Translations under genes and position numbers: made by a program
Notes under the pieces: generated by a model
Told to the model about the DNA's origin: nothing
Databases searched by the model: none
Seen by the model: the letters and a program-made list of their open reading frames with translations, nothing else
Source of the DNA: an uncultured Bacteriovoracaceae bacterium
Lineage (GTDB): Bacteria; Bdellovibrionota; UBA2394
Assembly: GCA_964626465.1 (NCBI GenBank)
Contig: CAZVFP010000001.1
Coordinates: 24,932 to 88,931 of the forward strand
Direction of reading: 5' to 3'
DNA: 64,000 nucleotides
Part shown: positions 54,409 through 58,953 of the stretch, one piece after another
Numbering within the stretch: position 1 is the stretch's first letter
Layout of the letters: each line of letters starts with the position of its first letter

Positions 54409-56193
54409 TTATTCGAGATTTTTAATCGCTTCGCCGATATCCACCTTCACAAGTGAAGAGCTTGTCAGCGCTTGCATAAGTCCAATATTGACTGCAAAGG
54501 TAAGTCCTGGCGGCGGATTTTCCACAAGCCTATACTCCGGAATCATTGTCACATTTCTAAATCCGGTTGTGTATGTTGAACCATTTGAACCTGCCCAGGT
54601 TTTACTTGAAAACGTTGGTTGCGATTCTACAATCAAACCTTGAGTTTCAAGACGTCCAAATGCACGTGGCCCGACCGCGGGGTAATCAGGATTTGAATCC
54701 ATAAATGATTCAGGAATCTTAAAACTACCGGAGCTAGTTGTCATGGTTGCTTGAATTCGAAGGCCGGTATAGCCGTCTGAGATTGTGCGGGCCCCAGACT
54801 TGATTTCGAGTCCTGAGGCTAGACCTGCTGAACTACATTGATTGCAAACTCCACTTGCACAATAGTTAGAATTATTTGAACAAAGAACTGTAAAGTTCAC
54901 GGGCTCGAGAGTGATGTCTCCCGTGGAGAGAAGCCAAATATTATTTGTCGGGCCGCTTTTTACAATGGAACTTCCAATTTTTATTGAATCTGCCAGAAAT
55001 GTCTGGGGAGCGCACATAACGGCATCTTTATACGGAGCTTTGGGTGTTACAGCGGTCGATCCATGAAATAAGGCCGTTCCTTCAACATAATAGATTCTTC
55101 CGGCAACCTGGGGCACAGCGCCACTGTCACTCGTTGCACGCGGGCCTTCAATATATTGGCCCGTTGCCGATTTGTAGAATGATCTAGACGTCTCCACAAC
55201 TCGAATATCACAGCCAGGTAGAATCTCGTAGGCGGCATAATCAGGAACAGAAGTACATCCCGTATTGGGATGAGCCGCTATGCATGCCGCTAACGCTTGT
55301 TGCCGAGTGTTTGGTCGAACTGCAGCCTGGACTTTCAGCTCGGCAAAGACATCTTCAACCGCTTTACTGAAGACTTGAGGCTGACTAAAGGCCACGCGAC
55401 CAATATCACTTTGAGCTCCGGTTCGATGTACGAGTCCGGTCGCTGAGTCGACGCTAGTGAATAGAATATCTTTAAAAACTGTGCCTGATCCTAGACCTGC
55501 AAATACGATATTACCGGCGAACGGATTATTATTATTGTCTAGTGGAGAGAAGAAAAGACCGGTGGGGCCTTCAAATGTTGTGTTGCCCAAAACGATATCT
55601 TCTTTGGACGCTGTGATGATATATGAGAAGCGATTGATGGTCGCGCGATCAATCTTAAATTCTTGAGTCAATCGTAACGTGACGGATGACTGAGCGTCGT
55701 GTCTTTCCATGACCAACTGAAAAGTTTTTGGCATTCGATCTCTATGAAAACTGCATGGTTCTGCTGCTAAAGCAAGCGCATTGACAGGATCAGGTGCGAT
55801 TTGATTTAGACAAGTGAGGGAAAGTGACTGGCCAAGCGCGAGATTATCCGAGTTTGCATTAAAAACATTCACAACGTTTGCTGCAAGGAAATCGGAAAAA
55901 GCTGATGTTGCAAGTTCTGACGTTGTAGGGCTGATTGATAATCGATTGTTAAGTGTGTCGGCTACTGATTTTCGTACTGATTCTGAAGTGGCAATAAGCT
56001 CCTGTTCCTTCAGCCTTTGCGATGATTCGACGAAAGAAAATCCACTGAAGATTTGAGCTCGCTTCAAATAAATACCGGCACCAAGCGAGACGGCTAAAAT
56101 TCCTGCAATCGCCATGACGGCCGCGTAGCCTGCATGGTCAGCCTGTTTACAAAGGATATGCATTCGTTCAACATTTTTCATAAAACACCTCAT
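54409..56193 (-). CDS. Membrane-anchored Cys-rich extracytoplasmic protein, partner of the giant pilin-like protein.
   Basis: Start at MRCFMKNVERM, forming an ATGA overlap with the upstream gene stop. TM anchor AAVMAIAGILAVSLGAGIYL. Cys cluster CSNNSNYCASGVCNQC. Confidence 0.6.
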   Translation of the reverse strand: MRCFMKNVERMHILCKQADHAGYAAVMAIAGILAVSLGAGIYLKRAQIFSGFSFVESSQRLKEQELIATSESVRKSVADTLNNRLSISPTTSELATSAFSDFLAANVVNVFNANSDNLALGQSLSLTCLNQIAPDPVNALALAAEPCSFHRDRMPKTFQLVMERHDAQSSVTLRLTQEFKIDRATINRFSYIITASKEDIVLGNTTFEGPTGLFFSPLDNNNNPFAGNIVFAGLGSGTVFKDILFTSVDSATGLVHRTGAQSDIGRVAFSQPQVFSKAVEDVFAELKVQAAVRPNTRQQALAACIAAHPNTGCTSVPDYAAYEILPGCDIRVVETSRSFYKSATGQYIEGPRATSDSGAVPQVAGRIYYVEGTALFHGSTAVTPKAPYKDAVMCAPQTFLADSIKIGSSIVKSGPTNNIWLLSTGDITLEPVNFTVLCSNNSNYCASGVCNQCSSAGLASGLEIKSGARTISDGYTGLRIQATMTTSSGSFKIPESFMDSNPDYPAVGPRAFGRLETQGLIVESQPTFSSKTWAGSNGSTYTTGFRNVTMIPEYRLVENPPPGLTFAVNIGLMQALTSSSLVKVDIGEAIKNLE

Positions 56194-58880
56194 GGACTGC
56201 CCAAACTTTTTTCGCCTTGTGTAAATGTCGTTGTCCCACCATTTTGAGGCGGAGATACCTTCACTCCCTGGTCTCGGCATGCAGAAGGAGGAACTCCAAA
56301 CTGGATGAATTTCTTTCGGTAGTAATCACGCTCTTTTGACAGAGCGGTATGGCCGATATTGGCCCCTGCATAGGCATTTGGGTCCGCTCCCGTTCCGCAG
56401 TCGGCATCACAAAAGAATCTGTAAGGCCACAATGCCGAAGCTCCGGCTGCGGTAAGAGTTGCTTCCATATTAGCAGGGAATCCGACAGGAGCATTGATGA
56501 AATTGAGTTGTCCTTCGTTTGTGCAAAATGATGGTGAATCAAACCACGCCATGCCCTTCGTCTGTGTATCTCGACTGATGAACATTGACTCGGCAGATGG
56601 ACATGAATTTCCAGACAAGGAAGAGAGGGTCGCCGTGGTTGGATTCCACGCATTCAGAATAAATGTATTAGGCGCGTTTACCTGTCTTCCTGCGTCGACA
56701 GAGAAAGAAAGATTGCCTGGTCCAAGATCTCCAACCTCGGGAATTTCGAAACCAACGCTGTTACCACAAGTCCATGACGTTTCATTTCCTCCAGGAGGTG
56801 TGCAATTTGCACCAAGAGAACCGAGCCCAGCGTCGGTGGCGACAACCGCAGGTAGAGTCGTGAGATCGGCTGGAGCTGGTCCGCGAAAATCTCTCATGAA
56901 ATAAAGGTATTTGGGGCCATAGATATTATTTTCTTGGGTGCCAGATCGAGGCGCTGCTACGAGATTTGCACAAGAACACATTTTTGCCATACTGGGTGTT
57001 AAGCCTTGAGGATTGCCCGTTCCCTGCAAGAAATATCCTTCTTGTCCTCCAGTGCTATGCCAAGTGTTGGCGCATGTCGTGCCCGTGCTTGCGCAGATCT
57101 TCGCCCAATTAATGTCGTACGCATTTCGAATTCTGGTGGTGATCGCCCCTGAACCATCCCAAGTACGAATCTGGCAGCTGCAGACATCCGCAAAGGTATT
57201 TCCGATGCTTCCTCCAACCTGACTTGCAAACTGTGAATACATATCGTCGCAGGTCGTTATTCGGATATCCCACTCACCACATTTGATCTTCTGGTTACCT
57301 GATGCATTGGCATCATTTACATTCGACGCTTCAAGTAATGCTTTGAGATGCGCAAAATCGACTCCGCCTCCAACGAGCGTTTCATAGGACGAAGGCCGTG
57401 AATAAAACGAAGATAAGACTCCAGACATCGTGCTGTTGATACAACTTTTGACCAAATTGCATGCCGGATGTCTTGATCTGAGCCACGCATGCGCGCCATT
57501 TGAATCGCCCAAAATACAGTCATAATAAGAGGCGCAAGCATCCAGACGAACTTTATTTTGAATCGTCGCGCCTGCTGGAACTGTTGAGTCATATTGTTTA
57601 GGGATCTTTGAGCTGAATTTAACCGGATCAAAGAACTGACCCTCAACAGGATCCCAACCGCATTTACACAGATTGCTTGTATAGTGATACTGCTGTTCGT
57701 TTGAAGTATATTTGTAAGCGCAATCCGGATTACATCTCGCTTTTTCTGGGATATCGCAGACACTCAAAATAATTCCAGAATCCAGCTGGCTCATTCCTGT
57801 ATTGTCTCCAGGCTTCTGATCCAGAGTGCTTGCAAACGAAACAATATTGTTGGCAACTGAAAATCCATTCGCAGAACTGACATTAATTACTTTCAAATCA
57901 AGCCCTGGAATCTTTTGAGAGATATTAATTTCAACTCGATCCACATCACTGAAGGTGACAGCCTTGGCTACATTACTCGCGCCGAGCGCCGTGAGATAGG
58001 CGCTATCTTTTGGCGATCGTATTCGACGTGGCAAAGATGGATGGGCTGTTTGCAACTCAACGGTCGTAATATGGCTTGTTCCAACGGCGGGTTTAAAGTC
58101 ATAATTGACCCTGAACGAATCAATGTTTTTGAGAATTTGTTTCCATTTAGTTGAATCTGATTCTCCATCAATTCGTCGATACAAAGTGTTTTGATTGACG
58201 AAGTACTCAACTCTCTCAGCCACTCTAAGCTGGGAGCCAAATCTTCTCAGTTCTGCAAGGTTTGTGATGACTTGTGGAATCGATGTCGAGCCGGTCATCA
58301 CATGGATTCTGTAGCAATTCTGATTTCCGGCGGCCTGTGATGGACAATCTTCCGTAGTGGGTGCTCCACTGACCTTCTGAACAACATTTCTAAACTCTGT
58401 ACTGCTGAGGACAAAATAATTTTTGTTGGTTAACGCATTGAGAAAGAATGTGTCTTTAGCTGCACTAGCGCCCACTTTTTTGTAAAATAGATCGTAAGTA
58501 TTTACCCCTGTTTTTGTAATTTCAAAATTTCCTGAGATATCGCCGTAAAGCTCTTTCAGAATATAGATTGTGTCGTTTTGTGTGGAATCGTAGGCCAGTT
58601 CAAGGCCAGTCGTTTCGTCATATGGCCGTGAGACGGCCTTGAAAATCTTTGATGATGAACCAGTGATCTTGAGGGCTCCGCTGAGATCTTTGCTGATGAG
58701 TTGTTTGGCAATGGAAACCGTTTCGACCGTTTTGCTTTTCATCGATTCTTGCTGCTGGGACTTGTAAAGTTTTTTGATGGCATAGGCGGATCCTCCGACA
58801 ATTAGCGCTGAGAGACCCGCTGCAATCATAAGCTCCGGAACAGAAAACCCACGGTTTTTAAAATAAGATATTCTTCTCAT
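56190..58880 (-). CDS. Giant (~896 aa) type IV pilin-like protein with class III prepilin leader.
   Basis: MRRISYFKNRG|FSVPELMIAAGLSALIV matches the G|F(S/T)xxE prepilin peptidase site with Glu at +5. A GAGGGG Shine-Dalgarno sits before this Met. About 40 Cys in the C-terminal region. Confidence 0.7.
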   Translation of the reverse strand: MRRISYFKNRGFSVPELMIAAGLSALIVGGSAYAIKKLYKSQQQESMKSKTVETVSIAKQLISKDLSGALKITGSSSKIFKAVSRPYDETTGLELAYDSTQNDTIYILKELYGDISGNFEITKTGVNTYDLFYKKVGASAAKDTFFLNALTNKNYFVLSSTEFRNVVQKVSGAPTTEDCPSQAAGNQNCYRIHVMTGSTSIPQVITNLAELRRFGSQLRVAERVEYFVNQNTLYRRIDGESDSTKWKQILKNIDSFRVNYDFKPAVGTSHITTVELQTAHPSLPRRIRSPKDSAYLTALGASNVAKAVTFSDVDRVEINISQKIPGLDLKVINVSSANGFSVANNIVSFASTLDQKPGDNTGMSQLDSGIILSVCDIPEKARCNPDCAYKYTSNEQQYHYTSNLCKCGWDPVEGQFFDPVKFSSKIPKQYDSTVPAGATIQNKVRLDACASYYDCILGDSNGAHAWLRSRHPACNLVKSCINSTMSGVLSSFYSRPSSYETLVGGGVDFAHLKALLEASNVNDANASGNQKIKCGEWDIRITTCDDMYSQFASQVGGSIGNTFADVCSCQIRTWDGSGAITTRIRNAYDINWAKICASTGTTCANTWHSTGGQEGYFLQGTGNPQGLTPSMAKMCSCANLVAAPRSGTQENNIYGPKYLYFMRDFRGPAPADLTTLPAVVATDAGLGSLGANCTPPGGNETSWTCGNSVGFEIPEVGDLGPGNLSFSVDAGRQVNAPNTFILNAWNPTTATLSSLSGNSCPSAESMFISRDTQTKGMAWFDSPSFCTNEGQLNFINAPVGFPANMEATLTAAGASALWPYRFFCDADCGTGADPNAYAGANIGHTALSKERDYYRKKFIQFGVPPSACRDQGVKVSPPQNGGTTTFTQGEKSLGSP

Positions 58881-58933
58881 GCACCCCTCACTTTTTGACG
58901 CTCGGCGCGACGTCATTTAATTGTAGCACAGTT

Positions 58934-58953
58934 ACCGGCTTGACCAAGCCGGT
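58934..58953. promoter_or_regulatory. Perfect 9-2-9 inverted repeat ACCGGCTTG-AC-CAAGCCGGT in the divergent intergenic region upstream of the giant pilin operon.
   Basis: Read directly from the sequence. It lies between divergent genes, so a terminator role is unlikely. Confidence 0.3.

Follow-up and report, generated by a model that had tools for sequence, protein, structure and literature searches.

How can a protein that begins like a type IV prepilin serve a filament when no gene for filament assembly lies near it, and is it a pilin at all? The question is raised by two adjoining genes, both on the minus strand in the list of open reading frames (ORFs), within a stretch of 64,000 nucleotides (nt) from an uncultured Bacteriovoracaceae bacterium (assembly GCA_964626465.1, contig CAZVFP010000001.1), which was analysed as a whole and is called the window below. 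Gene A encodes a protein of 896 amino acids (aa), and gene B, directly behind it, encodes a partner of about 590 aa. A first-pass annotation, made from the letters alone, had described the pair as a pilin-like protein coupled to a membrane-anchored partner and had proposed a tip module of a type IV filament. Our analysis confirmed this description, with corrections to the start of B, to the Cys-richness of B and to the novelty of the size, and supported the interpretation in part. It showed that A does belong to the type IV pilin class and does not just carry a look-alike leader. With a probability of roughly 55%, we read A and B as a stand-alone two-gene module that supplies two non-core tip subunits of a type IV filament, most likely of type IVa, in the Bdellovibrionota (Bacteriovoracaceae-like). 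The coordinates of the features are collected in Table 1.

Gene A encodes a type IV pilin-class protein with a GspJ/PilW-type carrier

Gene A lies within an ORF of 908 codons (56190..58916), which holds a further in-frame ATG upstream, at 58916. We favoured the ATG at 58880 as the probable start, since the sequence GAGGGG stands upstream of it at a spacing of 3 nt and a cluster member sourced from NCBI (P0022) is also 896 aa long. Read from this start, protein A begins with MRRISYFKNRG followed by FSVPELMIAAGLSALIVGG. Gly occupies position −1, Phe position +1 and Glu position +5; cleavage is predicted after Gly11, and the mature protein would start with FSVPE. The only hydrophobic segment of the protein covers aa 12–36, and helix alpha1 consists of a hydrophobic alpha1-N half and then an amphipathic alpha1-C half. 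This is the class III signal of the type IV pilin/pseudopilin superfamily, and the textbook prepilin signal that had been claimed for A proved to be canonical and to be kept across its family.

This family was obtained by an exhaustive HMMER search through 1.84 billion cluster representatives, which gave 20 proteins at E ≤ 1e-3, with 12 at E ≤ 1e-10. The relatives are 724–1132 aa long, with the exception of one 192-aa fragment, and are about 25–34% identical to A; the alignment of 19 A-family sequences (A1) has a mean column identity of 23%. Their N-termini all read [GA]/[FY][ST]x[IV][EQ] (the slash marks the cleavage site) followed by a hydrophobic stretch, and the motif is present in every member with an intact N-terminus. 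Word-indexed homology searches with A, B and the A-family profile returned only copies that are about 99–100% identical. A scan of a genome collection gave one locus (L008), in a metagenome-assembled genome labelled Bacteriovoracaceae (Bdellovibrionota), and a metagenome scan returned no A-family locus.

When the A-family profile was compared with the PDB, it matched the alpha1 helices of type IV pilins with E-values from 7.5e-5 to 0.019. In scans of the individual members, Pfam gave N_methyl in 7 of 19 (best E 4.8e-5), PilW in 3 of 19 and T2SSJ in 2 of 19, while NCBIfam gave PpdB (PRK10557) in five members, gspJ (TIGR01711) in three (best 1.8e-5) and ComGF in two; gspJ is the top-scoring named family among the members. 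All these matches lie under the curated cut-offs (protein A of the window reaches 20 bits against PRK10557, whose cut-off is 120), yet all of them point toward the J/W class. Aligned with hhalign, the A family matched E. coli K-12 GspJ with a probability of 93% (E 3e-7) in an alignment confined to the N-terminal 66 residues, and E. coli GspK with a probability of 4%.

An AlphaFold2 (AF2) model of A, built on the family alignment, contains an unbroken helix at 14–67 and a beta-sheet domain at about 105–355, for which the block means of the predicted local distance difference test (pLDDT) are mostly about 70–93. Residues 375–640 are modelled as mainly helical, with block means mostly about 62–84, and the last ~250 residues are less confident. 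The alpha1 helix packed on a beta-sheet head gives the model the 'lollipop' fold, and the pilin-like fold for which a check had been proposed at the N-terminus was in this way predicted. In a Foldseek search with the model, the best eight matches were EpsJ chains, with weak E-values. The head is of the GspJ type, its structural neighbours being XcpW (3NJE), GspJ (3CI0), EpsJ (2RET) and TTHA1219 (5G23), a type IV-like Thermus pilin that equals GspJ in score.

Given the motif, the AF2 and Foldseek results and the comparison with the GspJ profile, we assigned the carrier of A specifically to the GspJ/PilW type; as far as fold and motif go, the N-terminal ~360 residues are shown to be a GspJ/PilW-type minor-pilin module. 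The first-pass annotation had measured A against CofB and TcpB; with its J-type carrier, A would form a tip module of the modular-pilin kind and not of the CofB/TcpB type.

The cysteine-rich C-terminal module of protein A

Protein A has the build of a modular pilin, with the pilin module at aa 1 to ~360 and a separate module at aa ~370–896. It contains 26 cysteines, which make up 2.9% of its residues where 49 ORFs of the window average 1.13%. Inside the C-terminal module lie 24 of them, and 21 of the 26 are kept in at least 16 of the 19 family members. The number of cysteines in the family lies between 22 and 30 and is even in most members. Because the cysteines are conserved at low overall identity and their counts are even, they argue for structural disulfides in an exported protein. 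Both proteins of the pair had been called Cys-rich, which is correct for A and overstated for B, where 11 cysteines (1.9%) are found in the window protein, 4–8 in the other homologues, and two cysteine pairs are conserved.

Pfam and NCBIfam gave no match in the C-terminal module, and neither the PDB nor the viral fold library gave a convincing neighbour; the module has no detectable homologue outside the A family. An origin from a phage receptor-binding protein was considered and not supported, the viral fold library having given no significant match. Three CxC motifs had raised the idea of internal repeats in the Cys-rich module; the best hhalign comparison between segments (E 0.014 over 17 columns) was not significant, and the idea was dropped.

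Gene B is the constant neighbour of gene A

The genomic contexts of eleven A-family genes beyond the window were compared (L002, L003, L004, L005, L006/L007, L008, the P0005 contig, L009, L010, L011 and L012/L013). A homologue of B lies directly downstream of A in 12 of the 12 cases with readable downstream DNA, the window included, so that the two-gene arrangement, for which a search in other genomes had been suggested, is conserved. These homologues are 558–629 aa long, except for one copy split into 362 + 250 aa, and they overlap A or lie within about 30 nt of it. In a metagenomic genome, two modules stand in tandem (L012:2750–11435; also in L013): A' (873 aa) with B' (genes for 362 and 250 aa) comes first, and A (783 aa) with B (558 aa) comes second. 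The tandem may have arisen by duplication or represent 'interchangeable' tips, or one of its copies may be decaying.

Apart from general synteny with L009 (GCA_964601045.1), no gene other than B is consistently co-located with A across the loci. The block shared with L009 (window:59101–64000, L009:378–5840; 36–53% identity) comprises CysS (51% identity), a cytidine deaminase, DUF6580, a diphthamide-synthase-like gene and a ferrochelatase, and in L009 it lies 6–10 kb from the A–B pair. The shared block indicates that the two genomes are related and that the location of the module is broadly stable, and hence that the module is chromosomal and vertically inherited in the lineage. Another contig, L001, is 99% identical to the window.

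The ORF of gene B has 623 codons (54409..56280) and offers two starts near the end of A. The TGA of A (56192–56190) overlaps an ATG at 56193–56191, which would yield 594 aa, and a second ATG at 56181, with GAGGTG upstream after a 4-nt spacer, yields 590 aa. The latter is probably the true start, leaving a gap of 8 nt between A and B, since it has this Shine-Dalgarno sequence, agrees with the 590 aa of the NCBI-sourced protein P0002 and fits the N-termini of the homologues, which begin with MK. The ATGA overlap that the first-pass annotation had reported does exist, but as a start it is probably unused; tight coupling holds with either start, and the overlap of the Shine-Dalgarno sequence of B with the TGA of A fits translational coupling.

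Conservation in B was counted over 8 members, with alignments A2 and A4. The N-terminus consists of a basic stretch, Gly18, which is invariant in 8/8 members, and a hydrophobic segment in which no acidic residue stands at +5; after the basic stretch, the consensus reads G-x-A-L-V-F-A-I. The capping pseudopilins GspK and PilX have no Glu5 either, and the N-terminus of B is GspK/PilX-like. Aligned by hhalign with alpha1 of A, the N-terminal 82 residues of B place the Gly on the −1 Gly (E 5.8e-4, with a probability of only 29%). The comparison with E. coli GspK gave E 0.003 over 24 residues, again Gly on Gly, and that with GspJ gave E 0.029, both covering the transmembrane segment only (20–24 residues). 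NCBIfam T2SS_GspK matched 1 of 8 members weakly (E 0.064), and PF13400 matched one B N-terminus non-significantly (E 1.9). In E. coli K-12, gspJ and gspK overlap by 8 nt and stand in the same J-then-K order as A and B. Based on the N-terminal pattern and this gene order, B may reasonably be taken for a GspK/PilX-type subunit.

These resemblances would also be expected if A and B were divergent pseudopilins of a type II secretion system (T2SS), that is, GspJ/GspK paralogues at the tip of a periplasmic pseudopilus, with the C-terminal module binding cargo and not serving as an adhesin at the surface. XcpW, GspJ and EpsJ are the nearest structures and profiles, gspJ is the best-scoring named family among the A members, T2SS_GspK is the sole named match of a B member, and order and overlap are as in gsp operons; however, no gspC–M and no GspH/I genes are adjacent at any locus, and since TTHA1219 scores on a par with GspJ, the fold cannot separate a T2SS from a type IV pilus. 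A module of 530 residues together with a partner of 590 residues would also be very bulky for a periplasmic tip beneath the secretin, and big grafted modules are typical of surface-exposed modular pilins (PMC8179133). We regard a pseudopilus tip as improbable.

Filament machinery and points against a tip role

A Pfam scan of every window ORF of 150 aa or more detected neither a filament ATPase or platform protein nor a secretin or prepilin peptidase, in agreement with the first-pass annotation. A six-frame regular-expression search detected no further ORF with a prepilin motif in the window, and none was seen in any related locus. GspH/GspI (FimU/PilV)-like genes are absent from the 64 kb and almost absent beside the homologues; only a J-like gene and a possible K-like gene of the H-I-J-K (FimU-PilV-PilW-PilX) set are present, and in known systems GspJ requires GspI for the tip core. 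Linkage of the homologues to type IV filament genes had been set beforehand as a test of the proposal, and essentially no linkage was found, a TadA-like ATPase being encoded near the pair in 1 of 11 contexts (L005).

At the protein level, A of the window matched N_methyl (E 0.16) and T2SSJ (E 0.21; 12.3 bits, cut-off 28) below threshold, and its AF2 model is only moderate (mean pLDDT 68, predicted template modelling score 0.44). Around one half of the A-family members carry Ala at −1, Gln at +5 or both, which may lower or abolish cleavage by the peptidase or canonical assembly. Pfam gave no match in the B members, PDB profile searches with B gave nothing significant, and a single-sequence AF2 model of B was unusable (pLDDT 34). 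Together with the missing machinery, these results weigh against a role of A and B as tip subunits.

Some of them would be expected if A and B were not filament subunits, and if their pilin-like N-termini were inner-membrane anchors, or a relic, on periplasmic or envelope proteins that have nothing to do with pili. The lack of genomic linkage, the Ala −1 and Gln +5 variants and the lack of a significant pilin signature in B are consistent with this, yet A keeps, besides the anchor, a full GspJ-type head and the alpha1-C motif shared with GspJ. Ala at −1 and a missing Glu5 are tolerated in known minor pilins, and A is strictly co-inherited with a Gly-plus-hydrophobic partner, like J–K pairs. 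A function as anchors alone seems quite unlikely to us.

In L005 (345–1896), A–B is closely preceded by an 88-aa gene and by the gene of the TadA/VirB11-family ATPase (411 aa), which is two genes upstream. The pair might accordingly belong to a Tad/Kil-type pilus, as the Bacteriovoracaceae counterpart of the Myxococcus KilLMN Tips, and use a Tad machine with a shared PilD. The Kil Tips are likewise stand-alone clusters of a predator, with a large subunit that has an unknown C-terminal domain and with many predicted disulfides (PMC12075869), and the tandem A–B modules in one genome recall interchangeable tips. In Bdellovibrio, Tad is needed for prey invasion; the tad genes of B. bacteriovorus lie dispersed, one tadG stands alone, and a single PilD acts on PilA as well as on Flp (bioRxiv 10.64898/2026.07.08.737194). 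The leader of A, however, is of the type IVa/T2SS type (G/F-x-x-x-E-L) and not of the Tad type (E-F/Y), the head fits GspJ/PilW structures and the GspJ profile, and no A member has a Pfam match to TadE (PF07811) or Tad (PF13400) at E ≤ 1. Moreover, each locus has two genes and not three (L/M/N), and the ATPase is linked in a single context, so that membership in a Tad/Kil-type pilus is rather unlikely. Since filament genes are dispersed in Bdellovibrio and the Kil Tips stand alone, it is no anomaly in the phylum for a tip module to occur apart from any machinery.

Proposed mechanism and meaning

For the preferred reading, two tip subunits of a type IV filament, the following course can be proposed. 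A and B would be co-translated from one mRNA, and both, A as a prepilin, would be inserted N-in into the inner membrane via their hydrophobic N-termini. Cleavage of A after Gly11 would fall to a PilD-type peptidase whose gene lies in another part of the genome. The J-type module of A would then dock at the top of the filament, and B, which has no Glu5, would join A at the outermost end in a priming/tip complex. The C-terminal ~530 residues of A, a lineage-specific module with about ten conserved disulfides, would be displayed distally as an adhesin or binding surface. In this way A and B could prime or cap the filament, with the prey surface as a plausible target of the adhesin; a role in prey recognition is speculation.

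The recognition and holding of prey by obligate predators among the Bdellovibrionota are only partly understood: pili are required, and the tip components that contact the prey are poorly defined. A–B would be a concrete candidate for such a tip, made of a J-type minor pilin, a disulfide-rich display domain and a partner; the two are kept together across the family, which is very rare in the databases. It is conceivable, though doubtful, that A–B are the type IVa-class counterpart of the Kil 'Tips', an exchangeable prey-recognition head of the invasion pilus of the Bacteriovoracaceae, in which the C-terminal module would be a new adhesin fold that sets prey choice. If so, tandem modules in one genome would represent alternative specificities. 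Should A and B prove to be just a divergent pair of minor pilins with an ordinary role, the result would be an annotation. Two protein families that so far were unannotated ('hypothetical protein', with no Pfam or NCBIfam model) are defined here.

Upstream elements and neighbouring genes

The perfect 9-2-9 palindrome that had been noticed in the divergent promoter region was found again in our reading (Table 1). It lies 54–73 nt upstream of the start at 58880 and overlaps a weak −35-like TTGGTC. The candidate −10 element TACAAT, read by eye, was below the threshold of the consensus scan and not reported by it, and consensus scans for promoters and terminators over the operon gave results at chance level. 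The palindrome is identical in contig L001, and a few comparable short-loop palindromes with arms of 9–10 nt occur elsewhere in the window. A conserved operator was considered and dropped, the palindrome being absent upstream of the divergent A homologues and no additional half-sites being present in the window; it may nevertheless be an operator, for which the evidence is thin.

Elements resembling sigma-54 promoters (GG-N10-GC) were seen by eye about 20–60 nt upstream of the A homologue in L005 (TGGCCCgccgaTTGCA) and L010 (CGGCACaaccaCTGCA), in these two loci only, and none stands upstream of gene A in the window. A sigma-54 promoter for A was considered as a possible element and is not established. 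At the other end of the operon, where the stops of B and of a convergent 629-aa ORF meet, a perfect AT-only 10-1-10 palindrome is found (window:54393–54413; AATAAAATAA-T-TTATTTTATT), which may be a bidirectional termination element, although it forms no GC-rich hairpin.

Table 1 Features of the A–B locus (positions in the window)
Feature	Position	Strand	Basis
Gene A, 896-aa modular minor pilin	56190..58880 (stop codon included)	minus	ORF list, GAGGGG Shine-Dalgarno sequence, P0022 length, 20-cluster family
Shine-Dalgarno sequence GAGGGG of gene A	58884..58889	minus	Sequence reading
Class III (prepilin) leader MRRISYFKNRG	58848..58880	minus	Sequence reading, family motif, N_methyl matches
Pilin alpha1 helix, aa 12–67	58680..58847	minus	AF2 helix 14–67, PDB profile matches, hhalign to E. 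coli GspJ aa 3–68
GspJ/PilW-type beta-sheet head domain, aa ~100–357	57810..58583	minus	
C-terminal disulfide-rich module, aa ~370–896	56193..57773	minus	Cys conservation; no Pfam/NCBIfam match; no convincing fold match
Gene B, 590-aa partner (probable start)	54409..56181 (stop included)	minus	ORF list, P0002, homologues downstream of A
Shine-Dalgarno sequence GAGGTG of B start 56181	56186..56191	minus	Junction sequence AAAAGTTTGGGCAGTCCATGAGGTGTTTTAT, ORF translation
Gly18 and ~22-residue hydrophobic segment of B, putative GspK/PilX-like N-terminus	56062..56130	minus	
Perfect 9-2-9 palindrome ACCGGCTTG-NN-CAAGCCGGT	58934..58953	.	Divergent intergenic region
TACAAT, candidate −10 element	58920..58925	minus	By-eye reading; 16 nt after TTGGTC

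The 629-aa ORF convergent with B (window:52513–54402, plus strand) matched nothing in Pfam or NCBIfam, and it has no homologue next to A–B at other loci. A 123-aa protein encoded two genes downstream of A–B (window:52024–52395, minus strand) has an N-terminal signal-like hydrophobic segment, is rich in Gly, Ser and Thr, contains 6 cysteines (4.9%) and matches no family; L009 has a 120-aa gene in the equivalent place, without BLAST similarity. Farther away are an ORF of 244 aa with 12 cysteines (4.9%) and no family match (window:18672–19406, plus strand) and a 1009-aa protein whose sole match is DUF7932 (window:11819–14848, plus strand). Besides the genes of the block shared with L009, the genes for housekeeping and for the envelope that Pfam matched in the window include those for ABC transporters, glycosyltransferases, Wzi, radical SAM and M14 peptidase, the diphthamide-synthase-like gene being matched as an ATP pyrophosphatase, and more than a dozen ORFs of at least 150 aa have no Pfam match. 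Rfam gave no match in the window, and the base composition over the A–B pair is unremarkable. Upstream of A–B in L006 (1271–4597) and L007 (104–3413), four or five tandem paralogues of 78–102 aa, each ending in GDELDY, were found, next to a 638-aa flagellin whose N and C domains are separated by inserted FG-GAP repeats.

Comparison with known systems

The closest relatives of A by fold and motif are the proteins of the GspJ/PilW class, E. coli PpdB included. Like A, they have a class III signal with Phe at +1 and Glu5, a long alpha1 helix and a head of two beta-sheets, and a K/X-like gene follows directly. Unlike them, A is 4–5 times longer and carries a disulfide-rich C-terminal module of ~530 residues that is absent from GspJ/PilW; moreover, it reaches no curated family cut-off, and no H/I (FimU/PilV) genes or machinery adjoin it. 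GspK and PilX resemble B in their basic residues, the Gly and a hydrophobic segment without Glu5, in the position of the gene directly after J/W and in being larger than other minor pilins, but B is roughly twice as large as GspK and has no significant sequence match.

Two further comparisons concern the bulk of the proteins. PilY1/PilC is a large, tip-associated non-core protein encoded after minor pilin genes, with an adhesin role such as is proposed here for A–B. PilY1 is, however, not a pilin and has a Sec signal, and no Pfam match to the PilY1/PilC beta-propeller domain was found in A or B; the C-terminal beta-propeller domain of PilY1 is IPR008707 (PMC8179133). Modular pilins are widespread, with 264 architectures, an extreme of 860 residues and many modules without signatures (Raynaud et al. 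2021, PMC8179133); examples are S. sanguinis PilB (vWA) and PilC (lectin), CofB, ComZ and GspK (PMC8179133). They share with A the small pilin carrier with a bulky grafted module, expected at the filament tip. The size on which the first-pass annotation had laid stress is indeed giant, at 896 aa, but has a precedent in the 860-aa modular pilin (PMC8179133). A differs from these pilins by its J-type carrier, by a module without known domain or fold, by the size of its family, which with 724–1132 aa reaches or passes the upper end of the sizes reported, and by the dedicated partner of ~600 aa that is always present.

Myxococcus xanthus has four KilLMN 'Tip' clusters, each standing alone, whose minor-pilin complexes decide which prey die, and structural analogues of the Kil Tips are predicted in Bdellovibrio (Herrou et al. 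2025, PMC12075869). Like A–B, the Kil Tips are lone minor-pilin clusters in predators, away from the machinery, in which one large subunit has a C-terminal domain of unknown fold and many intramolecular disulfides are predicted; several paralogous tips occur per genome, which may be compared with the tandem modules of L012. The Kil proteins are TadE/F/G homologues that form heterotrimers, whereas A–B comprise two genes, a type IVa/T2SS leader and a GspJ fold, and have no TadE or Tad signature. What is new in A–B is the combination of a GspJ/PilW-type carrier, an unrelated module of about ten disulfides and a dedicated partner of ~600 aa, in a very small set of sequences. The concepts of the 'modular pilin' and the 'interchangeable tip' are thereby extended to a GspJ/PilW carrier and to a new module.

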